In this document: in pieces, positions 3,924-45,305 of the stretch
How the letters are laid out: every line of letters begins with the position of its first letter
Numbering within the stretch: position 1 is the first letter of the stretch
Sequence record: MT446389.1
Direction: 5' to 3' (one strand)
Length of the DNA: 45,305 nucleotides
DNA from: Escherichia virus TH11
Program-made: the position numbers and the translations under genes
Notes under the pieces: model-generated
The model's input: only the letters and a program-made list of their open reading frames with translations
Told to the model about the DNA's origin: nothing
Databases searched by the model: none

Positions 3924-3951
3924 TAGCCCGCCGATTTGGTGGGCTTTTTTG
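3924..3951 (+). terminator. rho-independent terminator
   Basis: agcccgcc...gtgggct hairpin followed by TTTTTT. Confidence 0.45.
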
Positions 3952-4033
3952 TGCCTGTTATAATCCCCTTAGATGGCAGGGCCGTCTCTTATGTTGCCGA
4001 TGGTCGGCGCATATGCACAAAAGGGCTTATATC

Positions 4034-8910: not shown

Positions 8911-9022
8911 CCCGTCCGCAGACCCCGACGAAGACTTGCTGGTCGATGTTAAGAATATGGAATGTGGTGCGAAGCTGAGGGCGCAAGTGCTGGAGTTGCA
9001 GAAAATAATTCGGGGGCCGTGA
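8783..9022 (+). CDS. putative o-spanin (Rz1-like lipoprotein)
   Basis: Signal peptide with lipobox LSAC, Pro-rich mature part, embedded in and extending beyond 8581..8910. Confidence 0.4.
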   Translation: MLNMLRALTALIVVLMLSACGSSNVPLMPLTESALRPPCKFDSPSADPDEDLLVDVKNMECGAKLRAQVLELQKIIRGP

Positions 9023-9036
9023 TGGCCCCCTTTTTG
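9012..9036. terminator. hairpin terminator between convergent genes
   Basis: gggggcc-gtgat-ggccccc followed by TTTTTG. Confidence 0.5.
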
Positions 9037-9801
9037 TTAGCGCGGAATACCGCAAATCTCGTTTAGCGTCTTCACGTCCAGCGCCACCGCCGTGGACTTC
9101 GGCTTATCCGGGTATGGAATAAACTGTTCAACTTCAGGCCACGCCTTGATCAGTTTCTTATCGGTATTGTGCATATCCAGTACGCCGGTAACTGTTAGTT
9201 TGAACGCGTCATACTTCGCACGCAATTCGCGGCGGGCCTTGTCGTTGCGATCTAGGCGCTTGCAGAAGTCGTGGTCTGCCGGGTAGTCTACGCGACCGCG
9301 CGGAAGATATATCGGCAGCGATTTTCCGTCCTCGTCCACTTCGCACACTGAAGCCAGCATAACTTCCTCGTACCCCGGTACGATATCACCGAGATCGGGA
9401 GATAGCTTGTTCAAATATTTCTCTTCCCAGTATCCGCGGTGCAGGCGGTATCGGTATCCATCGCCGCTCAATGATACGGTGCGAACATTACCGCCTGCGT
9501 TGATATCGAATCCGGCGCTATAAACGCTGCCGATGCCTTTTGGCCGGTCGGAGTTATAGCTATACGTCGCCTTGTCGGTGTAAACGCTAACGCCATACAT
9601 CTGCGACTGGTTATCGCGGATTTCTGCGATATATGCGCGTAACTCGGCGAACGTGCGAATGCCTTCCGGCATACAGTCCAGCGTAATGGCGTACGCCAAG
9701 TCGCGAGAGTCCATCATGATGGATTTTGCTTCGGTCGCGATTTCATGGTCGCGCAGGATGTTAGCCAGAATCTTGTTTTTAACGTCTTTTGTCAGTCTCA
9801 T
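9037..9801 (-). CDS. hypothetical protein, reverse-strand moron in head module
   Basis: 254 aa from internal ATG at 9801 with RBS GAGGA; track ORF to 10248 has a low-complexity extension antisense to the scaffold gene. Confidence 0.55.
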   Translation of the reverse strand: MRLTKDVKNKILANILRDHEIATEAKSIMMDSRDLAYAITLDCMPEGIRTFAELRAYIAEIRDNQSQMYGVSVYTDKATYSYNSDRPKGIGSVYSAGFDINAGGNVRTVSLSGDGYRYRLHRGYWEEKYLNKLSPDLGDIVPGYEEVMLASVCEVDEDGKSLPIYLPRGRVDYPADHDFCKRLDRNDKARRELRAKYDAFKLTVTGVLDMHNTDKKLIKAWPEVEQFIPYPDKPKSTAVALDVKTLNEICGIPR

Positions 9802-9823
9802 TTTTGCGTCCTCGTTGTTGGTG

Positions 9824-9846
9824 TGCAACCAATATATGCAACCAAT
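9824..9846. promoter_or_regulatory. tandem TGCAACCAAT motifs in divergent intergenic region
   Basis: Two copies 13 bp apart between minus gene 9037..9801 and plus gene 9950..10651. Confidence 0.45.
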
Positions 9847-9949
9847 ACGCGGATTGCAAGCGAATTTTGCGATTATTTTTATCACTGATAATATTAGAGG
9901 CGTGAAGTCGAGCGGGTGGCCCGCTCTGCCACAATCCCAGGGGGATAGC

Positions 9950-10651
9950 ATGAAACTTACTAAAGCAGAATATGACGCGTTGCCGGAAGGTATGAAGGCG
10001 CTTTTTGTTGCCGATGGTGACGGGTATAAATCAACGTTCATGACCGCAGAAGAAGTACAGGCGGAGATCAAGGGTCTGAAAGACAACAACGCGAAGCTGG
10101 TGAGCGAGAAGAAAGCAGAAGCTGAACGTCGCGCCGAAGCCGAGCGCCTTGCGAAAGAGAAAGAGGAAGCCGCCGCGCGCAAAAATGGCGACCTCGAAGC
10201 GATCGACAAGTCTTGGAAAGATAAGTTTGCGAAACACGAAGCAGACACATCGGGAAAAATCGAAGCCTATCGCAAGCAGATCCACGATCTAACCATCGGC
10301 AGCGCTGCCAAAGACCTGGCGTCGAAGCTGTTCGGTAAGAATGCGGGCATCATGCAACGCCACGTAATGGACCGCCTGACGCTGGAAGACGGCGAAGACG
10401 GCAGCTTGAAAGTGCGTGTCTTGCAGGATGGCAAACCGTCCGCGCTGACTATGGAAGAGCTTGAAAAAGAGTTCCGTAATAACGCCGATTTCGCATCCGT
10501 CCTGGCCGGCACGCCAGCAGGAGGCGCTCCTAGCAAACCGACGCAGGTTGTCGAAGATGTGAAGTCTAAAATTACGATGGGCCATAGCTTCGGTATCACC
10601 GATCTCACCAAACAGGCCGGGGATATCATCGCTAAAATGGGCGACGAGTAA
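9950..10651 (+). CDS. putative scaffolding protein
   Basis: 233 aa, K/E/A-rich coiled coil, immediately upstream of major capsid gene; start trimmed to MKLTKAEYD. Confidence 0.55.
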   Translation: MKLTKAEYDALPEGMKALFVADGDGYKSTFMTAEEVQAEIKGLKDNNAKLVSEKKAEAERRAEAERLAKEKEEAAARKNGDLEAIDKSWKDKFAKHEADTSGKIEAYRKQIHDLTIGSAAKDLASKLFGKNAGIMQRHVMDRLTLEDGEDGSLKVRVLQDGKPSALTMEELEKEFRNNADFASVLAGTPAGGAPSKPTQVVEDVKSKITMGHSFGITDLTKQAGDIIAKMGDE

Positions 10652-10654
10652 GCG

Positions 10655-10681
10655 GATTGCCCGCGAAAGCGGGCAATTTTG
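10655..10681 (+). terminator. hairpin, possible attenuator
   Basis: attgcccgc-gaaa-gcgggcaat followed by TTTT. Confidence 0.4.
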
Positions 10682-10748
10682 CGAGCGCGTAAAACTAAGG
10701 TAACATTAATGCCACTGGGCGAATGCTCACAACTCAAAGGATTTCGAT

Positions 10749-11849
10749 ATGTCTTTAACAGTGTTCCAGCGTAAACTCGTTACCGCGGTTACGCAAATGA
10801 TCCCCGACAACCTGAACGTTTTCAACGCCGCCGCCAATGGCGCTGTTGTTCTCGGTACTGGTGAAGTGCTGAAGGACGTTATTGAGAAAATGTCCGTAGG
10901 CTTGATCGCCAACCTCGTTACCGACCGTAACGCCTACGCCCCCGTCGGCACTCCGGCGACCGCGAAAGTGCTGGCGCGTATGCTAACCAACTCGGTTAAC
11001 CTTTCCGCAAAAGTGGGTCCGGTAGCAATCACTAAGGCTATGATGGCTAAGATCGAAACCAACGTTAACAGCGTTGCGGCTGAGATTGCGGCACAGGCTA
11101 CTCAAGCGATTATGCTGCACTACCTGAAAGCTGGTATCGGCGCAAGTAAAGCGGCGATCGAAAGCAACGCAGCGGCAAAATACACCCAACCGGCGCGCGT
11201 TGACGGCGTTGGCGGTCGTACCTTCCCGACCCTGGCAGACTTCCCGCTGGCGGCTTCTAAGTTCGGCGATCAGGCGTCTTTGATTAAGTCTTGGTTTATG
11301 GACGGCGTTACCTGGGCAAACTTCATTGCGTACCAGGCACTCCCTTCCGCTGAACAGGTATTCGCAATTGGCGATCTCCAGGTAATGGGTGATGGCCTGG
11401 GCCGTCGCTTCATTATCTCCGATGCCGCTGCCGATGCTATGGGGGCGGGTAACATGCTGGGTCTGGTCCCTGGCGCGGTTGCAGTTACCACCAACGGCCT
11501 CGATATGCTGGCGCAGGAGAAAGGCGGTAACGAGAACATCGAGCGCTGGTGGCAGGGCGAGTTCGACTTCAACGTGGCTGTTAAAGGCTACCGTCTGAAG
11601 GCGTCCGCTCGAACCCCGATCGAAGGTGTGCGCTCGTTCAAACTGGACGATATTACCACTTCCGCTAACTGGGAACTGGACCAGGGCCAGGTAGACAACG
11701 CACCGGCAACCGTTCAGGATGTTGGCGCTGTGGGTGATGGCGATACTAAAGGTCGTCGTAAGACCCAGGCCGCACAGGCAGTGCCTACCCGTCACATCAA
11801 GGAAACCGCGGGCGTACTGGTTACGCTGACGGCTACCACCGCGTCTTAA
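10749..11849 (+). CDS. major capsid protein
   Basis: 366 aa after scaffold and followed by a strong terminator; position and size typical. Confidence 0.75.
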   Translation: MSLTVFQRKLVTAVTQMIPDNLNVFNAAANGAVVLGTGEVLKDVIEKMSVGLIANLVTDRNAYAPVGTPATAKVLARMLTNSVNLSAKVGPVAITKAMMAKIETNVNSVAAEIAAQATQAIMLHYLKAGIGASKAAIESNAAAKYTQPARVDGVGGRTFPTLADFPLAASKFGDQASLIKSWFMDGVTWANFIAYQALPSAEQVFAIGDLQVMGDGLGRRFIISDAAADAMGAGNMLGLVPGAVAVTTNGLDMLAQEKGGNENIERWWQGEFDFNVAVKGYRLKASARTPIEGVRSFKLDDITTSANWELDQGQVDNAPATVQDVGAVGDGDTKGRRKTQAAQAVPTRHIKETAGVLVTLTATTAS

Positions 11850-11865
11850 TCGACGCACATCCCAA

Positions 11866-11893
11866 AGGGGCGGGCTTATGCCCGCCTTTTTTA
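11866..11893 (+). terminator. rho-independent terminator
   Basis: ggcgggc-ttat-gcccgcc followed by TTTTTT. Confidence 0.55.
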
Positions 11894-11907
11894 TAGGAGT
11901 GAATACA

Positions 11908-12408
11908 ATGTATGGCGACCCGCAAACCTTTGTCGATTATGCCACTGCGCGAGGCGTTGAAATTACGCTGGGCGATGCAACGCGACACATTACCATCGTT
12001 AATGACTTCCTTAACGGCATCAACTGGATCGGCGAACAGGCGGACCAGACAGGAATAGACGCATGGCCCCGCATCAATTACCCATCGGACGGGAAGCCGG
12101 TGCGCGACACGCTAACCGAAGCCGTGGCGGTAGTGCCTGTCGGGCAAATCGTAGACTTTGCATCAATCCCCGTTGCCGTTGAGCAAGCTGTTTACCGGCT
12201 GGCGCTGTTGGTGGCGGACGAGATCGATATTTCTCCTGTCGGCGATGGTAAAGAGACTATTCGCGAAACGGTCGGCCCGATCACGATGGAATATGACCCG
12301 GCGTCGATTGGTAGCGGGGTGTCGTTCCCGTGGTGGGATGGCTTGTTAGGCCACTGGGTTGATTCAGGCGGCAACGCCGCAGGCAATTTCGACGTATACA
12401 GGGGGTGA
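11908..12408 (+). CDS. putative head-tail connector / head completion protein
   Basis: 166 aa; start trimmed to MYGDPQ with RBS GGAG; synteny only. Confidence 0.4.
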   Translation: MYGDPQTFVDYATARGVEITLGDATRHITIVNDFLNGINWIGEQADQTGIDAWPRINYPSDGKPVRDTLTEAVAVVPVGQIVDFASIPVAVEQAVYRLALLVADEIDISPVGDGKETIRETVGPITMEYDPASIGSGVSFPWWDGLLGHWVDSGGNAAGNFDVYRG

Positions 12409-15108: not shown

Positions 15109-15422
15109 TTGAGGCGGCGCGACGCTTTTATGGTCCGCCGCCACCCTCCGAAGATTTAGCCGCAAGTTTATGGGGTGCGGCCCCCGAAGATGTTTGTCCG
15201 CCTGTTGCGCTATGGCCCGACAACGCGAAGATAGTCGCAGTCTTCACAGATTGCGCCACGCAATGGCGCACCGGATTTGGTGGCGCATACGGCATCGACT
15301 ACGGCGTGCTGGAGTGGTTATTTAAGATGCACGGTATCGAAAACGAGCAGCGCGCGTTTAAAGATATCAAGCTAATGGAACGAATCGCGCTTGATGAGAT
15401 GGCGCAGCAGAACCCCGCATAA
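14731..15422 (+). CDS. tail assembly chaperone GT-like fusion via -1 frameshift
   Basis: -1 frame stays open with no start codon from 15099 to stop at 15420-15422 (about 107 codons); slippery A_AAA_AAC at 15099-15105. Confidence 0.55.
15099..15142 (+). promoter_or_regulatory. programmed -1 frameshift signal
   Basis: Heptamer AAAAAAC in X_XXY_YYZ register; 7-bp stem GGCGGCG/CGCCGCC starting about 8 nt downstream. Confidence 0.5.
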
Positions 15423-15780
15423 TGCAGCGGGACGTCCCGTTTTGTCCCGCCTCTGTAAAACTGCATACCTACTCACACCCACTGCATAAACCAAAAACGG
15501 GACAAACGGGACGTCCCGATCTGTCCCGCCATGTAAATGTGCATACCTATTCAGATTTCGTGCATAAAGTAAGCGGGACAAAAAGCGGGACAAACAAGGA
15601 GCGGGACAAAGCGGGACAGCACCCCGTCCCCGCCAGTGCTGCCGCGGGTTGCGGCCGATCGGGACAAGCGGGACAAACCCCAGTCTTTCAGACTAGACGG
15701 GGGTCAATGGCCCCCCTCGTCTGAGACTGAATAAGGTTTGTTTTAAATTCGCTGATACAATGTCAATCGGCAACTGCATA
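15266..15780. repeat. tandem duplication unit 1 (515 bp)
   Basis: Identical to 15781-16295; track ORFs at +515 offset give identical translations; both junctions read directly. Confidence 0.85.
15426..15729. repeat. GCGGGACAAA repeat array copy 1 with terminal stem-loop
   Basis: At least 12 GGGAC(A/G) cores in both orientations, two GCGGGACGTCCCG palindromes, repeated TGCATACCTAYTCA and TGCATAAA, then GC-rich hairpin at 15680-15729. Confidence 0.75.
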
Positions 15781-16295
15781 GCGCACCGGATTTGGTGGCG
15801 CATACGGCATCGACTACGGCGTGCTGGAGTGGTTATTTAAGATGCACGGTATCGAAAACGAGCAGCGCGCGTTTAAAGATATCAAGCTAATGGAACGAAT
15901 CGCGCTTGATGAGATGGCGCAGCAGAACCCCGCATAATGCAGCGGGACGTCCCGTTTTGTCCCGCCTCTGTAAAACTGCATACCTACTCACACCCACTGC
16001 ATAAACCAAAAACGGGACAAACGGGACGTCCCGATCTGTCCCGCCATGTAAATGTGCATACCTATTCAGATTTCGTGCATAAAGTAAGCGGGACAAAAAG
16101 CGGGACAAACAAGGAGCGGGACAAAGCGGGACAGCACCCCGTCCCCGCCAGTGCTGCCGCGGGTTGCGGCCGATCGGGACAAGCGGGACAAACCCCAGTC
16201 TTTCAGACTAGACGGGGGTCAATGGCCCCCCTCGTCTGAGACTGAATAAGGTTTGTTTTAAATTCGCTGATACAATGTCAATCGGCAACTGCATA
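15781..16295. repeat. tandem duplication unit 2 (515 bp)
   Basis: Perfect copy of 15266-15780; junction caactgcata|gcgcaccgga. Confidence 0.85.
15941..16244. repeat. GCGGGACAAA repeat array copy 2
   Basis: Identical to 15426-15729 as part of the 515-bp duplication. Confidence 0.75.
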
Positions 16296-26384: not shown

Positions 26385-26438
26385 GGTATCATCTCCTATA
26401 TTTGGTTGAGTTTTAGTATTACACCGCTCGATCAAGAA

Positions 26439-26448
26439 TGCAACCAAT
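26439..26448. promoter_or_regulatory. TGCAACCAAT motif between divergent lipoprotein and tail fiber genes
   Basis: Motif with -35-like TTGCAT on minus strand and TACTAA about 18 nt downstream, pointing at lipoprotein gene. Confidence 0.4.
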
Positions 26449-26464
26449 TTACGAGGATTTAGCT

Positions 26465-28288
26465 ATGGCAGCGGGTACTCTATCCGTAACGAATAACAGC
26501 AAGGCGGTTGTCGGGGTAGGCACGACGTTTACCACGTTTACAGCTGGCGACTTCTTAACGCTGGTGGTAGGGCAAGTCCCATACACTGTTGCTATCGCGT
26601 CAGTCGAAAGCGACACCGCGCTTACGCTGGTGCTGCCGTTCGACGGCCCCACGGCAACCGATCTCGCGTGGGATGGCGTTAAGCGCGATACCATGTCACT
26701 GGCGACGATGGGCGTAACCGTACAGGCACAGAAAGCATTGCGCTTGATGCTTGCAGATGAAAACAACTGGCGTGCAATCTTCGGCGACGCTGAAGAAATA
26801 ACCGTGACGTTGCCTAACGGGCAGGTAATGCAGGGTATGTCATGGGGATATCTGTCGCAGTTGATGAAACAGGTCGACCCAGTTGAGATGCGCAACCTGC
26901 AACAGCAAGCCGCCGCATCGGAAGCCGCCGCGCTGGTGTCACGCAACGAGGCCGAAGGCTTCAAGACTGAGACGGCAGGCATTCGCGACGCCACCAATCA
27001 GATTAAGGCAGACACACAGGCGATCCACGACGCCACGAATACCATCAAGACGCAGACCGACCAGATTAAGACCGACACGCAGGCCATCAAGGACCAGACG
27101 AACCAGATCAAGACCGACACCGGCGTTATGAGGGACGAGGCAAACACCGCGAAGACTGACGCGCAAGCCGCCAGCACTGCCGCGCAGGGATATCGCGACC
27201 AGGCCGAGGAATGGGCGCAAAGCGTTAACGCGGATAACCTGCTAACCAAATCCGGCAACCTCGCGGGGCTTGCGGACAAAAGTGCGTCGTGGGCTAACCT
27301 TATGCCGTCCGGCCCGCTTCGAGTAGGCGCTGATCCCGTCGACAATCTGGACGCTGCGACTAGAGGATGGGTGTGGCGCGGTCTTGATGACGTGGGGGTG
27401 TGGGCCTTACGCAATAACTATGCTTCGGAACCCGCTGGCGGCGCAGAAGTATACGGCGGTCGCTTCGACTCATCTGCGAACGTCGCAGGGGCCGAAAAAT
27501 ACAGAATGTCGCTGCAACTTCAGGGATTTAATAACGTAGACGCCTGGACACGTTTGGTTACCGCTGACGTCCGCAGCATGGTGAACGCGGCGACGTGGGA
27601 CTTTAAGATCGATGGTAAGTTGCTTTTCAACAAAGGATTGGTTACATCATCCATCTCGGCGTCGCCCGGTAACACCTATGTCACCCTTGCGAATACATGG
27701 AGTGACAGCCAATACTCAGGCCACGTAGGTTTTGTCGGAGGGGGAACTGGGGTGTCTAATGGTGGGTGGCGTAACTTTATTTCGTTCGGGGCGCTGATCC
27801 ACCCACTAGCCGGTAACTCACACCCCCACGCTATGATTTCGCAGGTCTTTGACTATGATTTGTCGACTGGGGTACAGCCCAACGGCGATATCGTTCGAAA
27901 CACAACATTCAACCCCGAAGCATACGATATTACTTTCGGCAACAACTCAGGGACTGTTAACTATCTTTTTTCAAAGTCCCCAGTATCCGACAGGGCGCTG
28001 AAGCATGATATCGCCAGGATCGATACTCAAGTCGCGTACGATAACGTTATGGCTATGGAGTACTCGTCCTTTGTTTATAACTACGACAAAAAAGAGACGG
28101 TTAGACGTGGTTTTATCGCGCAGCAGTTGGAAGAGATCGACCCGCAGTATGTCCGTAAGTACGCCAACGCAACCGGTAAAGAGTCTCTGGCATTGGATGA
28201 AAACGTTCTACTACTGGACCTTATCGCGACTGTTCAGCATTTAGCGGCAAAGGTTGAAGCCTTAGAAAGTAAGTTAGCGGATAAATAA
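26465..28288 (+). CDS. tail fiber protein with C-terminal S74-type intramolecular chaperone domain
   Basis: C-terminus SDRALKHDIARID...; coiled-coil repeats TxQIKxDTQAI; start trimmed to MAAGTLSV because the track ATG lies inside the regulatory motif. Confidence 0.7.
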   Translation: MAAGTLSVTNNSKAVVGVGTTFTTFTAGDFLTLVVGQVPYTVAIASVESDTALTLVLPFDGPTATDLAWDGVKRDTMSLATMGVTVQAQKALRLMLADENNWRAIFGDAEEITVTLPNGQVMQGMSWGYLSQLMKQVDPVEMRNLQQQAAASEAAALVSRNEAEGFKTETAGIRDATNQIKADTQAIHDATNTIKTQTDQIKTDTQAIKDQTNQIKTDTGVMRDEANTAKTDAQAASTAAQGYRDQAEEWAQSVNADNLLTKSGNLAGLADKSASWANLMPSGPLRVGADPVDNLDAATRGWVWRGLDDVGVWALRNNYASEPAGGAEVYGGRFDSSANVAGAEKYRMSLQLQGFNNVDAWTRLVTADVRSMVNAATWDFKIDGKLLFNKGLVTSSISASPGNTYVTLANTWSDSQYSGHVGFVGGGTGVSNGGWRNFISFGALIHPLAGNSHPHAMISQVFDYDLSTGVQPNGDIVRNTTFNPEAYDITFGNNSGTVNYLFSKSPVSDRALKHDIARIDTQVAYDNVMAMEYSSFVYNYDKKETVRRGFIAQQLEEIDPQYVRKYANATGKESLALDENVLLLDLIATVQHLAAKVEALESKLADK

Positions 28289-29457: not shown

Positions 29458-29727
29458 TTATTTCTTGGCCCACTCCAGAGTTTTACACTCGTAGTCTTCT
29501 TCGGCCTGGCTGAGCACACACGTCATCATGTGCTCCGCATTGTCAAATCCGCTGGATTTAGCGTATTTATCTGCTCCTCCAACCTCTGCAATCTCGGCGT
29601 TTAGCGCCTCTACAGAATGCAGTTCGATATTATTAAGATAAGGGCTTGAAACGCCTTCTTTGTCTTCAATCATTGACCAGAATGCGTTGATTTTGTTGTC
29701 CAGGTCCGCACTAATGAATTGTTTCAT
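29458..29727 (-). CDS. hypothetical protein
   Basis: 89 aa from internal ATG (MKQFISADL) with RBS AAGGTG; track start lies in TGCAACCAAT motifs. Confidence 0.45.
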   Translation of the reverse strand: MKQFISADLDNKINAFWSMIEDKEGVSSPYLNNIELHSVEALNAEIAEVGGADKYAKSSGFDNAEHMMTCVLSQAEEDYECKTLEWAKK

Positions 29728-29748
29728 AATATTCACCTTTTTGTTGCG

Positions 29749-29778
29749 GGAGGCGGTATTGCCTCCCGATGTGGTTAA
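29749..29778. repeat. conserved stem-loop element copy 2
   Basis: GGGAGGC-GGTATT-GCCTCCC followed by GATGTGGTT. Confidence 0.5.
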
Positions 29779-29784
29779 TATAGT

Positions 29785-29805
29785 TGGTTGCATTATTGGT
29801 TGCAA
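29785..29805. promoter_or_regulatory. tandem ATTGGTTGCA motifs, candidate leftward promoter
   Basis: Minus strand reads TTGCAA, 17 nt, TATATT upstream of gene 29458..29727. Confidence 0.45.
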
Positions 29806-30263: not shown

Positions 30264-30481
30264 TTTAATTCCGCCATTAAATTTTCACGTACAATACGGG
30301 CCGAGAATGCGTCGCACACAAGATGGCAACGCGCCGTCATGACAAGCCAGCCAGTTAGGTCAAGGCCCAGCAATTGATGAGGTTGGCTTGCGCGCCTTAC
30401 TTTATTTCCAGGGAAAACCTGGTAGCGTTTAATTATTTCATCCACGACGCGAGGACTTCGGTCGACGACTAAGATATTCAT
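30260..30481 (-). CDS. hypothetical protein
   Basis: 73-aa ORF overlapping neighbours at both ends. Confidence 0.35.
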   Translation of the reverse strand: MNILVVDRSPRVVDEIIKRYQVFPGNKVRRASQPHQLLGLDLTGWLVMTARCHLVCDAFSARIVRENLMAELK

Positions 30482-30947
30482 TTAATTCACCTTCGCTCAT
30501 TATTTCGATTTGTGCGCTGCCGTTTGGCGGCACTTCTTCAAAGATTATCAATTGCTGGCACTTGTTGTTACTCGGCCCGACTTCGCCGGTGACGGCGTGT
30601 ATAAATCTAATCCGCCAGTCCAGAAGAATTATCAGGTTTGCAGTCTTCCTGGCCAGCTTCGCCCACTTCGTCGACGTGTCCTGATTCAGTAGCATGACCG
30701 TCCGGCGTCCGTGCGCTGCGCACTCTACCCACGGCAGCGGATCGGAATACGGCGGATTGCACCACTTCCACCCTTTCAACTCGGACCAGTCCACATCAAG
30801 CGCACTGTGTTCCGCCGTGAAGTAACGCGGTAGCAGATGATTGGCGTCGCTTGCCGCCATATCGTAACGGAATCGGTATTTCCGACGAAGCGGTTTAAAT
30901 AAAGCTGGCGGCGTGCGCCAGCTATCTTTTTGCTCATTCTCCGTCAT
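30438..30947 (-). CDS. DNA N6-adenine methyltransferase (phage Dam-type)
   Basis: 169 aa with WRTPP N-terminal motif and catalytic NPPY (WCNPPYS). Confidence 0.7.
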   Translation of the reverse strand: MTENEQKDSWRTPPALFKPLRRKYRFRYDMAASDANHLLPRYFTAEHSALDVDWSELKGWKWCNPPYSDPLPWVECAAHGRRTVMLLNQDTSTKWAKLARKTANLIILLDWRIRFIHAVTGEVGPSNNKCQQLIIFEEVPPNGSAQIEIMSEGELNEYLSRRPKSSRRG

Positions 30948-31392: not shown

Positions 31393-31446
31393 CGTGTTGT
31401 CTCCAGGTATTAAAAAAGGCGTCCAAACCGGACACCCTTAAGATAA

Positions 31447-31473
31447 TGCAACCAATATGATTATGCAACCAAT
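31447..31473. promoter_or_regulatory. tandem TGCAACCAAT motifs, candidate leftward promoter
   Basis: Minus strand reads TTGCAT, 17 nt, TATCTT upstream of gene starting 31392. Confidence 0.45.
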
Positions 31474-34366: not shown

Positions 34367-34406
34367 TTCTAAAATCCTCGATAGTGCTAACCGGCACACT
34401 ATACCG

Positions 34407-34685
34407 CTACGCGACCAATTCAGCAACCAATAAATCACAGTCGGCTATGTTGTCGATAACGCGAACGTCCGCACCGCGGCGGGCCATTCGTTCATGTTCA
34501 CGTACCTGGTGCGGCTTCGGTTTCCCACCTGGGCGCTTCACTTCGACGAACACTATTTTGCCGTTGATGATAATAATCAGGTCGGGCGCACCTGCGCGCC
34601 CCTCCCATGCCAGTTTTCGGCAGAATCCCCCAACGGCTTTAACCAGCTTCATCAGGTGACTTTGTATCTTGCCTTCTGGTGTCAT
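34407..34685 (-). CDS. VRR-NUC domain nuclease
   Basis: 92 aa with PD-(D/E)XK core GAPDLIII...VFVEVKRPGGKP...Q. Confidence 0.7.
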   Translation of the reverse strand: MTPEGKIQSHLMKLVKAVGGFCRKLAWEGRAGAPDLIIIINGKIVFVEVKRPGGKPKPHQVREHERMARRGADVRVIDNIADCDLLVAELVA

Positions 34686-38180: not shown

Positions 38181-38236
38181 TTTCCAATTCCTCATTTTCA
38201 CATGTATCGGGGTTATTGTGAGCCACCCCGTCCGGC

Positions 38237-38262
38237 TTGGTTGCTAATCTACTTGGTTGCGC
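38237..38262. promoter_or_regulatory. tandem TTGGTTGC motifs upstream of SSB-like gene
   Basis: Two copies 17 bp apart in intergenic region 38202-38270. Confidence 0.4.
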
Positions 38263-38270
38263 CTGAGCGG

Positions 38271-38513
38271 TCAAGCATTTTTATTAAAAAGATTTCGTGT
38301 CACGTAGTTGGTGGCGTTCTCGATCCAGCTTAACGGCGGGCGTTCGATGTTCTTTTCCACCCAATCGACGGCAACTTCGCTATAGCCGTCATCCAGCCAG
38401 CGGGTCGGATGGCGAATCATCCACGCCACCATTAACACGCCTTGCACGCAATGCAGGATAAAGCCCAGCGCTCCGAGCAAAAACATCAATAAGATTGCGA
38501 ATACTTTATTCAT
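38271..38513 (-). CDS. small membrane protein
   Basis: 80 aa with two hydrophobic helices. Confidence 0.4.
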   Translation of the reverse strand: MNKVFAILLMFLLGALGFILHCVQGVLMVAWMIRHPTRWLDDGYSEVAVDWVEKNIERPPLSWIENATNYVTRNLFNKNA

Positions 38514-40554: not shown

Positions 40555-41073
40555 TTAGTCTTCCAGTTCGAAATAAGTCTCGACGATTTCTTTTAAATCT
40601 TTGTGGAAGTCTTCGACGTCGTCGTCTTCCAGCTTGGCGATTGATTTGATCTCGAACGCTTCCAGCAGGTCGTCAAATTCGTCGTTAGCATCGTCGTCAT
40701 CGCCACCGGCGATAATCGCGGCGTACTGCTTGATCTCGTCGCGCATCTCTGCCAGCGGATCGGCATCTTTCTTCCCTTTGCCTTTCGCCGGAGCTTTTTT
40801 ACCCTTCGCCGGTTTTTCGTCTTCGGCTTCTTCATCGTCGTCATCTTCTACGACTTCTTTTTTGGCCTTACCTTTAGCCGGGGATTTTTTAGATTTAGCC
40901 GGTTTTTCGTCTTCGGCGTCATCGTCGTCATCTTCGACAACTTCTTTTTTGGCCTTAGACGGCTTCTTATCTTCCTGTTTACCAACGGCAGCGCCAACGG
41001 TTTCATAATGCTTTGCAATGGTTTCCAGTGCTACTACGCCGCGAGTGATCAGGTTTACGATTTGCTCAAACAT
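40555..41073 (-). CDS. charged tandem-repeat protein, candidate DNA mimic or nucleoid-associated factor
   Basis: 172 aa from internal ATG with RBS GGAGAT; two in-frame repeats KKEVVEDDDD..EDEKPAK.KK.PAKGK; first gene of leftward early operon. Confidence 0.55.
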   Translation of the reverse strand: MFEQIVNLITRGVVALETIAKHYETVGAAVGKQEDKKPSKAKKEVVEDDDDDAEDEKPAKSKKSPAKGKAKKEVVEDDDDEEAEDEKPAKGKKAPAKGKGKKDADPLAEMRDEIKQYAAIIAGGDDDDANDEFDDLLEAFEIKSIAKLEDDDVEDFHKDLKEIVETYFELED

Positions 41074-41269
41074 GGTATATCTCCGATTGGTTAAGTTTAG
41101 GTGTCGGCAGTTAACTTCGTCGCTGGCCTTAACATATTGCCAGGTTACGCGTTCTCCCGTTCGGGTAGTGGACCTGGTTATATAATCACGGTTGGGAATC
41201 CTGACACTTCGATCCGGCCCCTGCGTTGCCCCTCTCCAGTTTGCGTCCTGCATCCTGTCGACGGAGTGA

Positions 41270-41299
41270 ATGATAGATTGGTTGCAGGATAGGTGTCAA
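41270..41299 (-). promoter_or_regulatory. candidate early leftward promoter with operator-like motif in spacer
   Basis: Minus strand TTGACA, 18-nt spacer containing TGCAACCAAT, TATCAT. Confidence 0.4.
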
Positions 41300-41310
41300 C
41301 AACTAATTTC

Positions 41311-41346
41311 AAAAAAAAAGCGCCGAGGCAAAATGCGACGGCGCTA
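41311..41346 (-). terminator. rho-independent terminator on minus strand
   Basis: 7-bp stem AGCGCCG/CGGCGCT followed on minus strand by nine T. Confidence 0.45.
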
Positions 41347-41368
41347 ACCAATAAGAGACAATGAGACG
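41311..41368 (-). ncRNA. candidate short leftward transcript (about 58 nt)
   Basis: Minus-strand TTGAAA, 16 nt, TAATAA promoter about 60 nt upstream of the terminator; no ORF. Confidence 0.25.
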
Positions 41369-41415
41369 AGAATTATTATTACACGCGTGCGCGCCCGTTT
41401 CAATATCCAAAGGAT

Positions 41416-41444
41416 TTGACACCGTGCAGTTTTGGGTGTAGTTT
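41416..41444 (+). promoter_or_regulatory. candidate rightward sigma70-like promoter
   Basis: Perfect -35 TTGACA at 41416-41421, 17-nt spacer, weak -10 TAGTTT, upstream of gene at 41476. Confidence 0.4.
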
Positions 41445-41475
41445 CGTTGGTCATTAACCAACTGAGGGCAGAGCA

Positions 41476-41805
41476 ATGAATGTAAACGACGCAATCGAAA
41501 TGTTAACGAAGACTGTTTGCAGTGAGACAAGCCGGTCGTGGGCATACACCGATGCCGTGGGGGCTGTGTTATTTGAAATCGAACGACTGCGGCTTACCGA
41601 AAAAGAATTGCGCGCCAGGCTGGAACTACTCAACGGTACAGCAGCAAGCAAGCTGCAAAAACACAATGAAGAAATGGAAGAATACAAAAAGCAGGTTATC
41701 CGTTTGCGCGCCGAGGGTAAATCATGGGCGATGATTGCCGAGTTGACCGGGATTAATCAGAGCACAGTGCGCTCCTGGGTACGCAATAATAAAACTTCTA
41801 AGTAA
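41476..41805 (+). CDS. HTH DNA-binding regulator
   Basis: 109 aa; C-terminal KSWAMIAELTGINQSTVRSWV is a helix-turn-helix; first gene of rightward operon. Confidence 0.55.
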   Translation: MNVNDAIEMLTKTVCSETSRSWAYTDAVGAVLFEIERLRLTEKELRARLELLNGTAASKLQKHNEEMEEYKKQVIRLRAEGKSWAMIAELTGINQSTVRSWVRNNKTSK

Positions 41806-41815
41806 GGCCACGGCA

Positions 41816-44080
41816 ATGAGCTTGATTAAATTCGCTGTAACAAAACCCGCTAAAAAAGGCGAAAAAGCCAGGGCGGAAAACTTCCAGATGACGACCGATG
41901 AGTTTTTCGAATTTATCAAAGATGCGAAAGAAATCTCCTCGGTGCATATCAACAAGACGGAAGATAAAGCCGAGTATGCGCGCCGCAAGCGTAAGGCCGA
42001 TGGCATCGTGGCGTATACCAGTGACGGATTGCGTCGTAAGACCAGTGCGGTGGACCGCTCGATCCTGTTCTTTGATATTGACCGCACCGACACCCGCACC
42101 CTGCGCCGCTGCCGTAAGGCGTTCATCGACGCGGGACTGGAACATGTATTTCACACCACAACCGGCGACCGCCACCCGCTGAAAGGTGGCACGCGTTGCG
42201 CTCGTTTCCTGGTGCTCACCGACAAGCCTGTACCGGCGGAAGACCTAGGCCGCGTACAGTATGCACTGTTACACCAACTGGGCCTGTCAGATGTGGACTT
42301 CGATGATTGTACGAAAGACACAAACCGCCTTATGTACCTACCACACCAGCAGTCCGTTGTTAAGTGTCACTACGGCAAACGTGCCCGCGTCCGTCGTCTG
42401 CTTCGCCTGGCGGATAAGCTGGGAGTGGAAAAAGAGGAAGTACGACGCGAACTGACCCAGGGCGATGACGGCGTGGCTGACGGTATTCTGGATTGGTGCT
42501 TCCAGGCGGGATTCGAACCGCTGTCGTCCGGTCGTGGTTATGAAGTGCCATGCCCGAACGAACACCTGCACAGTGGTGAAGGGTCCACCGCTATCATGGT
42601 TAAGGATGGCGAGATCCGTTTCAAGTGTATGCATACCGGCAACGAGTGTTGCTCGGAGCTGAACAGACACCAGCACCTGGCGCTACGTCTTATCGGGATC
42701 CCGGACCACCTGAACGTCGAACCGCACAACATGTCACGTAAGCAAATCGCCGCCATCCTTCCAGGACTGGACGACGAGGAAGTGGAATCGTGCTATGCGC
42801 ATATCGTTGATGCGGTCGGAGACGGCGACGAGTACGGCGGATGTACAGATGCAGACCTGGACAACGAGCCGGTTGCGCTGTTCAGTAAGCACGACCCGAT
42901 CATCGAGGGGCTGATTAACTTCAAATCGACCTGGTATCTTGCTGGCGAGTCGAACATCGGTAAATCGTTCTACGTGCTGGGCCAGATGGCGTCAGTATCT
43001 GCCGGTATTCCGTTCGGCGGCGCGAAGGTCGTCCAGTGCCACAACTTCTATTTCGACGCGGAAGGTGGTGAAGCCTCCAACCAGCGTAAGGAAGCATTGC
43101 AGATCAAATATGAGCACGACCTGGACAAGCTGCACATTATCGATCTGCAGTCACGCGGCTGGGATATCACCAGCAAATCCGGCTTGCGTGAAGTTATCAG
43201 CTTTATCAACCGCACCGCTAACGGCGAGCCGGTTGGCCTGGTGGCGTTCGACTCACTCAACCAGACTGTCGCGTTGCGGTCAGCCGATGCTAAACCGTTC
43301 GACGAGAACAACGCCAGCGATATGGGCGAAGTGGTCAAAGCGCTGAAGGCTATTGCGGAAAACACAGGCGGCAGTGCGGGAGTCATCCACCACCCGGCGA
43401 AAGGTGCAAACGGCAGCAGATCTCCCCGCGGGTCCGGCGCGCTGCATGGTGCTGTCGATTCCGCGTTCTTCCTGGAGCAACCGGACGACAATCAGCCGGG
43501 CCAATTGAACCTGTACCATGAGAAGGCACGTAACGGCATCAAGCAAGCGCCGCGCGGCTTCGTCCTGCTTAAGTGCAAGGTTAAGGTGGATCTCCGCAAG
43601 TCAGAGGCGTTCGAATCGCACCAGTCCACCAGCACCGGGCCTGACTTCGGTGATGTGGTTGCAGGATGGGACGTCAAGCCGATCGCATCAACGCCACGCG
43701 ACGAGACTCTTTACCTCGTACCTGTCGCCCTGGCACCGTTCGCTATTGAGCAGGCGAAGGCCGCGGGTAAGGCAGCAGTTAAGGAAGAGAACCCCGCAGG
43801 ACCGCGCAACGAAAAAGAGAAAGTGCTTTATGCGGCGCTGGAAAAACTGATGGAAGATAACCCGGACCATACCGGATTCAGTAAATCGGCAATCGTCCGC
43901 CAGGCTGGACTTGCGAAAGGTGGCACATCGACGAAGGCAATAGACGATATGGTCGAGCGCGGCGTGCTCGGTTTCTATACAGATCCGCACACCGGGGCCA
44001 TCTATGGGTCATCGAATATCGTCATCAAAACGAATATACCCATCACGCTTTCGGCGACCGATGATGATTTAAAAGATTAA
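41816..44080 (+). CDS. bifunctional primase-polymerase / helicase
   Basis: N-terminal AEP-like FFDIDRTD, Cys/His zinc cluster, C-terminal Walker A AGESNIGKS and Walker B LVAFDSL. Confidence 0.8.
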   Translation: MSLIKFAVTKPAKKGEKARAENFQMTTDEFFEFIKDAKEISSVHINKTEDKAEYARRKRKADGIVAYTSDGLRRKTSAVDRSILFFDIDRTDTRTLRRCRKAFIDAGLEHVFHTTTGDRHPLKGGTRCARFLVLTDKPVPAEDLGRVQYALLHQLGLSDVDFDDCTKDTNRLMYLPHQQSVVKCHYGKRARVRRLLRLADKLGVEKEEVRRELTQGDDGVADGILDWCFQAGFEPLSSGRGYEVPCPNEHLHSGEGSTAIMVKDGEIRFKCMHTGNECCSELNRHQHLALRLIGIPDHLNVEPHNMSRKQIAAILPGLDDEEVESCYAHIVDAVGDGDEYGGCTDADLDNEPVALFSKHDPIIEGLINFKSTWYLAGESNIGKSFYVLGQMASVSAGIPFGGAKVVQCHNFYFDAEGGEASNQRKEALQIKYEHDLDKLHIIDLQSRGWDITSKSGLREVISFINRTANGEPVGLVAFDSLNQTVALRSADAKPFDENNASDMGEVVKALKAIAENTGGSAGVIHHPAKGANGSRSPRGSGALHGAVDSAFFLEQPDDNQPGQLNLYHEKARNGIKQAPRGFVLLKCKVKVDLRKSEAFESHQSTSTGPDFGDVVAGWDVKPIASTPRDETLYLVPVALAPFAIEQAKAAGKAAVKEENPAGPRNEKEKVLYAALEKLMEDNPDHTGFSKSAIVRQAGLAKGGTSTKAIDDMVERGVLGFYTDPHTGAIYGSSNIVIKTNIPITLSATDDDLKD

Positions 44081-44155
44081 ATTTTGCGCGCATTGGTTGC
44101 CGATATGGGAATTCCCATATCGCTAGAAGATTAAATTTTGCGCGCATTGGTTGCC
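44073..44155. repeat. direct repeat - palindrome - direct repeat element
   Basis: 29-bp direct repeat at 44073-44101 and 44127-44155 flanking perfect 20-bp palindrome gatatgggaattcccatatc at 44102-44121. Confidence 0.7.
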
Positions 44156-44213
44156 ATTTTGAGTGTTTTTATCTGGTCGTATTGGTTGCCGTGTAGTGTA
44201 AATATAGTGAATA

Positions 44214-44402
44214 GTTATGCAGTTTTATTGCATAAAGTAAGCGGGACAAAAAGCGGGACAAACAAGGGGCGGGACAAAGCGGGACAGCACCCCTGTCCCA
44301 CCCCGGATGACGCGGCCTGGAGAGGAGCGGGACAGGCGGGACAACCCCCAGTCTTTCAGACTAGACGGGGGGTCAATGGCCCCCCTCGTCTGAGACTGAA
44401 TA
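44214..44402. repeat. GCGGGACAAA repeat array copy 3 with terminal stem-loop
   Basis: Paralogue of 15565-15735 with a few substitutions; preceded by AT-rich stretch; hairpin at 44350-44398. Confidence 0.7.
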
Positions 44403-44543
44403 AAATCCGGGGATTGCAAAATACACGGCAGCATGATGCGAAGTGCGGTCGAGGATGAACTAGGCAACCAATGCGAGATGCATTATGCTGAGTGAAAAAT
44501 GCAGTTTGCAGTCACAGCAGATAGCGATCAACTTTTTCATGCG

Positions 44544-44594
44544 CATGTTTGATATTGGTTGCATTCAACCCGGCACCTGGCTATATTGGTTGCG
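44544..44594. promoter_or_regulatory. ATTGGTTGC motif pair upstream of gene at 44616
   Basis: ATTGGTTGCA at 44544-44553 and ATTGGTTGC at 44584-44592; reverse-orientation copy near 44466. Confidence 0.4.
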
Positions 44595-44615
44595 CACCAA
44601 CATGAGGACTGAACA

Positions 44616-44906
44616 ATGAGAGCGTTAATCTGGAATTACACAATGGCAGTGGCAAAACCGGTCGAAGCGAGATATACCAACGGCAGAGCACCGTGGGAGC
44701 GCCTGGTAGCTCCGACCTGGTTTGCGGTCATGGATGCGACCGCGGGCATGGAAGACCCCGAGCCGTTGCGCGCGGCTATCAGGGCTTACGCGCTTGCATT
44801 TGCCCGTGAACGCCTGGCCTATCGCTTCGGTATTGGCGATAAGGCAGTGACAAACGTCGCCCGGATTAAAGCCCAGCGCGAACTATTCTCCAAGCTTGCG
44901 AAATAA
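44616..44906 (+). CDS. hypothetical protein
   Basis: 96-aa ORF with RBS GAGGA. Confidence 0.45.
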   Translation: MRALIWNYTMAVAKPVEARYTNGRAPWERLVAPTWFAVMDATAGMEDPEPLRAAIRAYALAFARERLAYRFGIGDKAVTNVARIKAQRELFSKLAK

Positions 44907-44915
44907 GGGGCCAAA

Positions 44916-45185
44916 ATGAGCCGTAGGCGCGCTAAACAGCTTTCCTGGCATATCCCCCTGCATTGCATACGAATATGGGCTGAGAATGCGGTTGAGGGCG
45001 AATCTGTATTCTGGTGCTATCGCGATGATGTGAAGCCGTTGACGCAGACTCGCTACTTGCACCAGTTCGCAGCACAACACGATTTCAGGGTGCGTACTTC
45101 CTTGCAACCAATTGGAATACGTATTACATTACGCCGGAAGCCCGCCGTTGAGCGGGTAGGCAAACACTGGAGACTGAGCAAATGA
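44916..45185 (+). CDS. hypothetical protein
   Basis: 89-aa ORF; stop overlaps next ATG. Confidence 0.4.
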   Translation: MSRRRAKQLSWHIPLHCIRIWAENAVEGESVFWCYRDDVKPLTQTRYLHQFAAQHDFRVRTSLQPIGIRITLRRKPAVERVGKHWRLSK

Positions 45186-45305
45186 CACCAGCACTAATGG
45201 CGGGATTCTCGCAGAAGTTTATTTCTGTTGATGCCTGCATAGCAGATTATGAGATGGACGGCATCGCTACTGTATGCGATGGCGACACGAAAACTGCCGA
45301 TGAGA
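45182..45305 (+). CDS. hypothetical protein, 5' fragment truncated by window end
   Basis: ATG at 45182 overlapping upstream stop; open to end of window. Confidence 0.3.
   Translation, partial: MTPALMAGFSQKFISVDACIADYEMDGIATVCDGDTKTADE

Follow-up and report, generated by a model that had tools for sequence, protein, structure and literature searches.

The window analysed here is the whole 45,305-nt sequence of Escherichia virus TH11 (MT446389.1), in which an earlier note had pointed out an over-represented, mostly intergenic 9- to 10-mer and had suggested that it is either the binding site of a phage regulator or a phage-specific promoter element. Our results favour the first proposal. We consider it probable that the 10-mer, with the 8-mer core GCAACCAA, is the recognition site of a sequence-specific protein encoded by the phage, which would act at a repeat cluster resembling a replication origin (ori) and at promoters, most likely by repression. 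This is the best of the readings weighed below and is backed by covariation of the motif between phage lineages.

On both strands together, TGCAACCAAT had nine exact matches, compared with 0.20 expected from dinucleotide shuffles (none of 100 shuffles reached nine). When up to one mismatch was allowed, 19 matches were obtained (3.45 expected; largest shuffle value, nine), and the core GCAACCAA occurred 21 times (about 1.3 expected). Position-frequency analysis gave a compact asymmetric consensus, (T/G)GCAACCAA(T), with uninformative flanks. For the placement in the genome we used a set of 24 sites, comprising the core plus GCGACCAAT. Sixteen of them lay in non-coding DNA, which makes up 7.7% of the window on a gene map projected from the SO-1 and McMelon annotations (binomial P=6×10−13), and a further four lay at most 16 bp from a gene end; coding copies were present at 17636, 20985, 32577 and 45103. 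Wherever copies were paired they stood head-to-tail, with start-to-start spacings of 12, 12, 13, 16, 17, 23 and 31 bp. The shuffled controls and the non-coding enrichment thus bear out the over-representation that had been seen by eye, and a motif copy was present at every coordinate listed in the earlier note. That list had missed the pair at 34410/34422, a second copy at 2394 and a few coding copies; also overlooked were the densest cluster, an ori-like iteron region beside the primase-helicase gene, and the membership of the motif in an iteron family that differs between lineages. A structured RNA element is not indicated, as the motif is placed in both orientations relative to transcription and Rfam covariance models run over the whole window gave no family at gathering score. 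A tRNA scan gave no result.

Two sampled segments of the window (9000–12000 and 41000–45305) were 100% identical to Escherichia virus TH13 and 88–97% identical to many Dhillonvirus genomes; by these sequence identities the window is a Dhillonvirus genome. Its rightward arm begins at about 41.4 kb, passes over the window ends and stops at 25.2 kb; on it lie a helix-turn-helix (HTH) gene and the primase-helicase gene, small genes, and the genes for lysis, terminase, head and tail. The leftward arm, from 41.3 to 28.3 kb, carries DNA-metabolism genes. Promoters were predicted by sigma70 consensus scans and by reading of the sequence, the inferred start sites being set about 7 nt past the −10. Sixteen motif copies fell within nine predicted sigma70-type promoters (A to I), at about −40..+3, in both orientations and in several registers, and all 16 lay in the region that is covered by RNA polymerase. 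The predicted promoters and their copies are:

2365–2394, + strand: promoter A, TTGACT-18-CATACT, past the terminator at 2335–2356 and upstream of an SbcD-like gene
2371–2380, + strand: copy TGCAACCAAC at promoter A, right after the −35, about −30..−21
2394–2403, + strand: copy TGCGACCAAT at promoter A, over the −10 end and the start site, about −7..+3
9831–9859, − strand: promoter B, TTGCAA-17-TATATT, predicted to drive the accessory Nmad5 gene (9801..9037)
9824–9833, + strand: copy TGCAACCAAT at promoter B; in the minus-strand reading over the −10 and +1, about −9..+1
9837–9846, + strand: copy TGCAACCAAT at promoter B, in the spacer, about −22..−13
26415–26443, − strand: promoter C, TTGCAT-17-AATACT, for a cor-like gene
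26439–26448, + strand: copy at promoter C; on the minus strand it gives the −35 TTGCAT, about −40..−31
29777–29805, − strand: promoter D, TTGCAA-17-TATATT, whose downstream gene probably starts at 29727
29783–29792, − strand: copy TGCAACCAAC at promoter D, in the spacer, about −22..−13
29795–29804, − strand: copy TGCAACCAAT at promoter D, giving the −35 TTGCAA, within the last codons of the PNK gene
31440–31468, − strand: promoter E, TTGCAT-17-TATCTT, upstream of a ligase-like gene and followed by a terminator-like hairpin
31447–31456, + strand: copy at promoter E, in the spacer, about −23..−14, in reverse orientation to transcription
31464–31473, + strand: copy at promoter E, giving the −35 TTGCAT, about −40..−31
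34398–34426, − strand: promoter F, TTGCTG-17-TATAGT, upstream of a Lar-like gene
34410–34419, + strand: copy CGCGACCAAT at promoter F, in the spacer, within the 3′ end of the VRR-NUC gene
34422–34431, + strand: copy AGCAACCAAT at promoter F, giving the −35 TTGCTG
38246–38274, − strand: promoter G, TTGACC-17-TAGATT, for the gp2.5-like single-stranded DNA-binding protein (SSB) gene, orthologous in all lineages compared
38236–38245, − strand: copy AGCAACCAAG at promoter G, over the start site, about −6..+4
38252–38261, − strand: copy CGCAACCAAG at promoter G, in the spacer, abutting the −10
41270–41299, − strand: promoter H, the predicted leftward early promoter, TTGACA-18-TATCAT, with 11 of 12 consensus matches
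41277–41286, − strand: copy at promoter H, in the spacer, about −23..−14
44559–44587, + strand: promoter I, TTGCAT-17-TATATT, for the gene at 44616–44906
44554–44563, − strand: copy at promoter I, giving the −35 TTGCAT
44585–44594, − strand: copy CGCAACCAAT at promoter I, over the −10 and +1

Copies at −40..−31 were found in promoters C, E, F and I, where the motif, read as ATTGGTTGCW, gives the −35. Others lay at −34..−21 (promoters D and A), at −28..−13 within the spacer (B, D, E, F, G and H) or at −9..+4 (A, B, G and I). The two placements that had been described before, a position in the spacer of a sigma70-like promoter and the supply of a TTGCA(A/T)-type −35, both recur here, the former at predicted promoters B, D, E, F, G and H and the latter at C, D, E, F and I (as TTGCTG at F). 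Between the copy at promoter C and the tail-fibre ATG that follows it at 26465 there are 17 nt. Other predicted promoters lack the motif. The terS promoter has a perfect extended −10, TGTTATAAT, at 3956–3964 directly past the terminator at 3925–3945 and no motif copy; this extended −10 is kept in McMelon, CHD5UKE2, YD-2008.s and LM40P1 (in LM40P1 as TGATATAAT). The core of the scaffold promoter (9867–9894) is motif-free, the pair of promoter B lying at −77..−55. At the rightward early promoter (41416–41444; TTGACA-17-TAGTTT) only a degenerate palindrome, GTTGGTcattaACCAAC, was found at 41446–41462, and the counterpart of this promoter in the deeper lineage L131 has a full motif copy in its leader.

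A separate feature of several motif-bearing promoters is a G+C-rich leader hairpin directly after them (31415–31440, 29745–29765, 38205–38232 and 9916–9932). The hairpin at promoter E has a T-run and looks like a terminator; since its 5′ arm overlaps the inferred start site, it may stop upstream read-through and not promoter E transcripts.

Within the genus we aligned six Dhillonviruses, including LM40P1 at about 76% identity. The motif copies were invariant and the DNA between them drifted: 113 of 150 motif columns were invariant, compared with 493 of 850 other non-coding columns (six regions; Fisher P=6×10−5). The non-invariant motif columns came mostly from locus A, which is missing in two genomes, and from the copy in a 54-bp duplication. 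At promoter A, the copy at 2371–2380 was conserved in five of the six genomes and in L131; at promoter E, the copy at 31447–31456 was invariant in all six. In CHD5UKE2 and YD-2008.s the DNA beside promoter B was rearranged and contained extra genes, and the promoter and its motif pair were kept, also where a different gene now lies downstream. At the cor junction, LM40P1 has acquired a further copy, which makes TTGCAA-17-TATATT.

The densest motif cluster of the window lies directly downstream of the primase-helicase gene, in the following region:

41816–44080, + strand: primase-helicase gene, with the iteron family always at its 3′ end
44081–44615: ori-like repeats, named 'region B' in the record of SO-1, with seven motif copies, GCGGGACA iterons, a long hairpin and the conserved element GAATAGTTATGCAG
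44092–44101, − strand: ori-region copy GGCAACCAAT, within a 54-bp tandem duplication
44146–44155, − strand: ori-region copy GGCAACCAAT
44181–44190, − strand: ori-region copy GGCAACCAAT
44463–44472, + strand: ori-region copy GGCAACCAAT, inverted relative to the three upstream copies

Four of the seven copies are of the subtype GGCAACCAATGCG, three of which, together with the inverted fourth, bracket the GCGGGACA iterons and the long hairpin. The tandem duplication (44070–44155; TA[A/G]AAGATTAAATTTTGCGCGCATTGGTTGCC...) provides the third ori-region copy in the window phage and McMelon; SO-1, LM40P1, CHD5UKE2 and YD-2008.s have two copies where the duplication gives three. In the Edwardsiella phage eiAU, the equivalent is a 900-bp non-coding region with seven CTGCAACCAAC repeats and AT-rich tracts. 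Clustered repeats, as expected of iterons, were present in the window (seven), eiAU (nine, the first of them inside the 3′ end of the primase-helicase gene), L133 (five), L132 (six) and Shemara (three). AT-rich tracts were located by reading at 27030–27200 in eiAU and at 44160–44235 in the window. The cluster is most likely part of a replication origin or of its control region; alternatively, it may regulate transcription that enters or crosses the origin.

The same region contains a second iteron family, GCGGGACA(A) with GGGACGTCCC palindromes, which occupies 15443–15675, 15958–16190 and 44241–44343. The same long hairpin comes after every block (at 15681, 16196 and 44349), and the blocks correspond to 'region A' and 'region B' as annotated for SO-1, whose depositors noted that region B is similar to region A upstream of the tape-measure gene. 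The counterparts of GCGGGACA are CTCGCAA in the Klebsiella phage VLCpiS11a (VLC) and L132, and GGGGAGA or AGGGATA in the group of Shemara and L134, with GGGGAGA in Shemara and AGGGATAA in L134. In the window, a 515-bp perfect tandem duplication (about 15265–15779 and 15780–16294) comprises the 3′ end of the tail-chaperone frameshift gene and region A; the unit is single-copy in the other Dhillonviruses examined, and the duplication could be genuine or an assembly artefact. In Shemara and in L134, the word GAATAGTTATGCAG (44209–44222 in the window) likewise stands twice past the primase-helicase gene, and TGAATAGTA is the commonest intergenic word in Golestan. GAATAGTTATGCAG may act as a promoter of the extended −10 type or as a further element of the origin.

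In all, our comparison covered ten lineages, three of them represented by loci of 12–22 kb only. Beyond the genus, in eiAU, which belongs to a different genus, TTGGTTGC was the most over-represented 8-mer, with 23 copies (1.25 expected), 17 of them intergenic in a genome that is 90% coding. VLC had ten copies of GTTGGTTGC (0.32 expected) and 13 of the core, ten of these being intergenic. Position 9 of the motif is C in eiAU and VLC and T in the window phage. L131, a Dhillon-like metagenomic lineage whose primase-helicase is 69% identical, had 13 copies in 22 kb. Although the intergenic DNA cannot be aligned across genera, copies stood at orthologous junctions: upstream of the SSB and scaffold genes, at the 3′ end of the VRR-NUC gene (VRR-NUC/Lar), after the lysis genes and after the primase-helicase gene. 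The copy at 34422–34431 has orthologous copies in eiAU, VLC and L132, in L132 as that lineage's own variant.

At the 3′ end of the primase-helicase gene, the related phages carry an iteron family, GC[NN]CCAA[Y] (GCNNCCAA), which takes the form AA..T in Dhillonvirus and L131, AA..C in eiAU and VLC, AG in Shemara and L133 and GG in L132. A genome-by-variant matrix showed one variant per genome, with GCAACCAA, GCAGCCAA or GCGGCCAA each dominating one genome at or downstream of this 3′ end. There, GCAGCCAAC occurred three times in Shemara and five times in L133, and GCGGCCAAC six times in L132; no member of the family was seen in L134 and Golestan. The variants extended to the promoters. The SSB promoter spacer contained GCAACCAA in Dhillonvirus, L131 and VLC, and in L132 it contained GCGGCCAA, which is L132's own ori variant. 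At the VRR-NUC junction, TTGGTTGC in VLC was matched by TTGGCCGC in L132. The SSB promoters of Shemara, L134 and Golestan have TTGACA-N17-TATAGT-like hexamers and a motif-free spacer. Because the variant of L132 is common to its ori cluster and its SSB promoter, one reader probably serves both classes of site. The specificity of this reader would differ between lineages, which favours a phage-encoded protein over a conserved host factor. The existence of orthologous promoters without the motif, in turn, suggests that it is an add-on operator and not a promoter element.

We propose that a phage protein binds single asymmetric 10-bp sites. The asymmetry and the variable spacing of the head-to-tail pairs suggest independent binding by a monomer or a flexibly linked oligomer. 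Its first class of targets would be the cluster beside the primase-helicase gene, where the sites are interleaved with the second iteron family, and its second class would be the one or two sites in the core of most predicted sigma70-type promoters. The latter comprise the leftward DNA-metabolism promoters D to H, promoters A, B and C, and promoter I, which is the first to point rightward past the ori-like region. As the sites lie over the −35, in the spacer beside the −10 or over the start site, their occupancy should exclude RNA polymerase. Promoters G and H are near-consensus and need no activator, which also points to repression. The protein would thus repress, or shut off in time, early, middle and accessory promoters, and the motif-free structural promoters (the terS extended −10 and scaffold) would stay active. 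The division between motif-bearing DNA-metabolism, post-ori and accessory promoters and motif-free structural promoters fits a shut-off of early and middle genes. In this way, the protein would link the timing of gene expression to DNA replication.

Several observations weigh against this proposal. Repression is preferred to activation from the position of the sites alone. The promoter scans overall gave no excess of promoter-like sites over shuffled sequence, and no convincing promoter was found at the three copies at 44092–44190. The GC skew of the window mirrors the direction of transcription and locates no origin. Our search of the literature on these phages found no binding, transcription-start or expression data. 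The remaining contrary points concern the reader itself, for which the window offers the following candidate besides the primase-helicase:

41476–41805, + strand: HTH109, 109 aa, the sole dedicated HTH regulator gene recognised in the window and a candidate binder of the motif

HTH109 scored above the Pfam cut-offs for HTH_23, HTH_28 and Sigma70_r4_2 (the last with 27.8 bits against 25.7), and no other dedicated HTH protein was revealed when about 25 small and early proteins were scanned against Pfam and PHROG. In all 24 known clusters, the last 60 residues are nearly unchanged, and residues 1–46 are hypervariable. A structure model (pLDDT 86.7) has a 59-residue helix followed by a helix-turn-helix, and the fold resembles the DNA-binding domains of LuxR, sigma region 4 and resolvases, with non-significant E-values. 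The family is confined to Dhillon-like and L131-like phages and is absent from eiAU, VLC and L132. The earlier suggestion to assay this protein for binding is therefore reasonable for the genus, but the same core occurs in those three phages without HTH109. Its slot in eiAU, VLC, L132, Shemara, L134 and Golestan is occupied by an orthologous Cro-like XRE protein, which we rejected as reader because its recognition helix does not follow the motif variant.

The primase-helicase has a signature of the archaeo-eukaryotic primase (AEP) type, an invariant Cys/His (zinc) module and an RSF1010-RepA-like helicase core. Its C-terminal module (residues 666–737) has a winged-helix topology; in a full-length fold search the RecA/RepA core was dominant and the C-terminal module was not isolated. 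No other part of the protein varies as much as this C-terminal domain, which falls into the groups Dhillonvirus with L131, VLC with L132, and Shemara with L134. The grouping agrees with that of the second iteron family (GCGGGACA and counterparts) and not with GCNNCCAA, and no column of the primase-helicase alignment follows the GCNNCCAA variant.

In a phyletic profile made by tblastn with all proteins of the window, eiAU, VLC and L132, only the Dam-like methyltransferase and Nmad5 tracked the dispersed motif. The Nmad5 gene (9037–9801) was present in nine of ten genomes with dispersed motifs and not in Shemara, L134 and Golestan; the PF05869 Dam-like methyltransferase gene (30438–30947) was present in Dhillonvirus, eiAU and VLC and not in Shemara and Golestan. 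This co-occurrence with the motif may reflect function or shared ancestry. We rejected Nmad5 as reader because SO-1 has no Nmad5 and yet 21 motif copies, and because the VLC and L132 proteins are 89% identical despite their different variants. Moreover, nmad5 can be deleted in the Dhillonvirus PhiSMS22 (PMC11846954). Together, these points suggest that Nmad5 is an accessory gene under regulation and not the reader. The small proteins encoded just past the ori-like region are unrelated between lineages and were likewise set aside. Nor did the host consensus sequences for DnaA, IHF, Fis, sigma54, marbox, CytR, OmpR and the CspA Y-box give a convincing match; the T-to-C change at position 9 removes CCAAT. 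On balance, HTH109 is the leading candidate in Dhillonvirus, although we name it tentatively. Another phage protein outside the recognised families comes next as a plausible choice, the primase-helicase is a rather doubtful one, and what little expectation remains falls to Nmad5 or a host factor.

Could the motif be purely a replication-origin iteron read by an initiator, its promoter copies being titration sites or by-products of TTGCA −35 hexamers without a role in transcription? The clustering of each lineage's variant at the 3′ end of the primase-helicase gene, to which the variants of Shemara and L133 are confined, and the seven copies with AT-rich tracts in the 900 bp of eiAU would be as expected. 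Against this stand the 16 copies strictly in the core of nine predicted promoters, their counterparts at orthologous junctions in four or five lineages and the presence of L132's own variant in the SSB promoter spacer. With a promoter placement so precise and conserved, an iteron without effect on RNA polymerase is hard to sustain, and we regard this explanation as unlikely.

We give still less credence to a phage-specific promoter element that is read by a modified host RNA polymerase or by a sigma-like or appropriator factor in the style of the MotA box, the second proposal of the earlier note. It would account for the TTGCA(A/T) −35-like hexamers 17 bp upstream of the −10 at five promoters and for the Sigma70_r4_2 match of HTH109. 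A core element, however, should keep a fixed distance and orientation to the −10; neither the register nor the orientation of the motif was fixed, and its flanks were uninformative. It also appears dispensable, judging by the orthologous SSB promoters of Shemara, L134 and Golestan, which keep their hexamers without it. In the near-consensus promoters G and H it stands in the spacer, where sigma70 makes no base-specific contacts, and many region B copies have no −10 partner.

Binding of the motif by a conserved DNA-binding protein of the enterobacterial (Enterobacterales) hosts, exploited by the phages, seems to us a slender prospect. The core does occur in phages of E. coli, Edwardsiella and Klebsiella and in the 'Sodalis' phage SO-1, and no phage protein convincingly matches the phyletic pattern. 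There is also a loose likeness to OmpR and CytR half-sites (GxxAC, TGCAAC), which we judged not to be a convincing match, and none to the DnaA, IHF, Fis, sigma54 and marbox consensus sequences. The lineage variants (AA, AG or GG; T or C at position 9) are coherent within each genome although the hosts are the same or close, and the close relatives Golestan and Shemara, which infect E. coli or Salmonella, lack dispersed copies.

About equally improbable is a target of phage DNA modification, by which Nmad5, a Dam-like methyltransferase or both would tune promoters or the origin epigenetically. The presence and absence of Nmad5 and PF05869 follow the dispersed motif, with SO-1 as the exception for Nmad5, and promoter B, which would drive Nmad5, carries two copies. 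The objections to Nmad5 as reader, from SO-1, from the VLC and L132 proteins and from its deletion (PMC11846954), apply here as well, and an iteron-like cluster is more typical of protein binding. Least credible is a non-functional dispersed repeat or a relic of recombination at module boundaries during gene shuffling: variable accessory genes do lie next to several copies, in the slot downstream of promoter B and at the cor/tail-fibre junction, and the similarity between two VLC copies extends over about 40 nt of flank, but the 10-mer is conserved without its flanks, is kept across genera without detectable intergenic nucleotide similarity and covaries in its variants within genomes.

By analogy, the motif comes closest in architecture to the C1 operators of phage P1, in logic to the DnaA box and in its replication module to P4 alpha. 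The P1 C1 operators have an asymmetric 17-bp consensus and occur at more than a dozen dispersed sites, singly or paired, overlapping promoters. The window motif is likewise asymmetric and dispersed in single or paired copies, in either orientation, over the −35, spacer or −10 of ordinary sigma70 promoters, as the 16 copies in nine predicted promoters show, and one regulator would control many operons. It differs in sequence, in its shorter length (10 bp) and in the additional iteron-like cluster beside a replication gene. Unlike P1, these phages are described as lytic; no lysogeny module was seen, and no C1 homologue was found among the scanned proteins. The bacterial initiator binds its 9-mer, the DnaA box, at regulated promoters as well as at oriC. 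As with DnaA boxes, a short asymmetric box is found in a putative origin cluster and in promoters, in both orientations, and one reader is proposed for all. In contrast to the DnaA box TTWTNCACA, TTGGTTGCA matches TTATCCACA at four of nine positions by inspection, the window encodes no DnaA-like protein, and the variant changes between phage lineages, which suggests that the reader is phage-specific, unlike DnaA.

P4 alpha is a primase-helicase in which a C-terminal winged-helix domain binds the origin and reads the iterons of ori and crr. The fused primase-helicase of the window resembles it in its C-terminal module of winged-helix topology and in the iterons beside the gene; the second distant repeat region, region A (15.4–16.2 kb), which is similar to region B, recalls the P4 ori/crr arrangement, as does the covariation of the GCGGGACA family with the winged-helix-like domain. 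The helicase core is of the RepA/RecA-type AAA_25 and not superfamily 3, the primase looks AEP-type, the C-terminal domain co-varies with GCGGGACA and not with GCNNCCAA, and P4 iterons are not dispersed in promoters. The T4 MotA box and the lambda Q-binding element are also short phage-specific words between or over the −35 and −10. These act positively from a fixed position and orientation, whereas both vary for the window motif, and the scans of small and early proteins detected no MotA, AsiA or Q homologue. Finally, plasmid iterons with Rep autoregulation and the omega heptads of pSM19035 are short direct repeats of variable number that lie over promoters and also take part in the control of replication or partition. 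They are contiguous or limited to the rep promoter, whereas the window copies are 12–54 bp apart over at least nine promoters.

In the literature, including the genome papers of HK578, SSL-2009a, EP23 and eiAU, we found no description of the motif, no promoter map and no phage-level transcriptome; the SO-1 record annotates repeat regions and does not mention the dispersed word. A scan of IMG/VR for tandem pairs (GCAACCAA-N2-10-GCAACCAA) was unproductive: it returned 120 loci, nearly all of them chance matches or coding repeats of the collagen-like type GGC-AAC-CAA (Gly-Asn-Gln), and L045 as the sole Dhillonvirus locus.

The motif also bears on gene starts. Public records call starts within it at 9836 (scaffold) and 29793, and the frame from 9836 is broken by indels in LM40P1. 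More generally, the starts called at 9836, 10041, 26438, 29793/29805 and 41253 lie inside or across motif and promoter regions and are probably wrong. Two of them had been noticed before as false ATG starts: 26438 is indeed an ATG within the motif, but 29805 is a TTG within the motif and not an ATG. Likely starts are 9950 for the scaffold gene, 9801 for Nmad5 (254 aa, not 334), 26465 for the tail fibre, 29727 for the gene downstream of promoter D and 41073 for the gp46-like gene. The 80-residue difference in the length of Nmad5 also appears in PMC11846954.

Downstream of promoter H, positions 41186–41251 (minus strand) matched unannotated intergenic DNA of other phages over about 52–65 nt at 86–94% identity, namely the unrelated T1-like phages slyngel, JLBYU07, BEBK14 and KMI8 and the Klebsiella phage IME279. 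This segment lies within a stretch that public records treat as a 60-residue N-terminal extension of the gp46-like protein, whose relatives begin at the equivalent of 41073. It contained no tRNA and no Rfam match, and its RNA fold was not unusual (z=0.17).

A different word, the octamer ACGGCA[A/G]C, occurred 52 times over the whole window (about 3.5 expected; e.g. at 528, 1683, 2714 ... 44425). Fifty of the 52 occurrences were within genes, in all three reading frames and roughly every 870 bp, and in the structural arm 24 were on the + strand compared with three on the − strand. The same word family gave one of the top 8-mers in eiAU, Shemara, VLCpiS11a, Golestan and L132–L134. This conserved skewed oligomer might be Chi-like or serve as a signal for primase or for packaging.

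The phages that are isolated most often from E. coli, Salmonella and Klebsiella include Dhillonviruses and their relatives, which are used in therapy collections and studies of defence systems. For these phages, the motif provides a regulon map of nine predicted promoters and an ori-like region, a short bait sequence for finding the regulator and a natural set of specificity variants (AA, AG and GG), and it corrects a number of publicly annotated start codons. Should the motif prove to serve both origin and promoters, a lytic phage would couple replication and transcription compactly through one DNA word, which would aid the engineering of these phages and could supply orthogonal phage-derived operator/repressor pairs. 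A further-reaching idea, which is possible but which we hold as conjecture, is that a protein binding origin iterons has been co-opted as a genome-wide transcriptional switch in Dhillonvirus, Eiauvirus and some Guernseyvirinae-like phages, the iteron word being re-tuned in each lineage (GCAACCAA, GCAGCCAA or GCGGCCAA) and changed concertedly in promoter spacers and at the origin. In that case, HTH109 and the unrelated Cro-like protein of the same slot, or an unrecognised protein, would read nearly the same word, and one protein would read both origin occupancy and the early-to-late shut-off of promoters, as a phage equivalent of DnaA.

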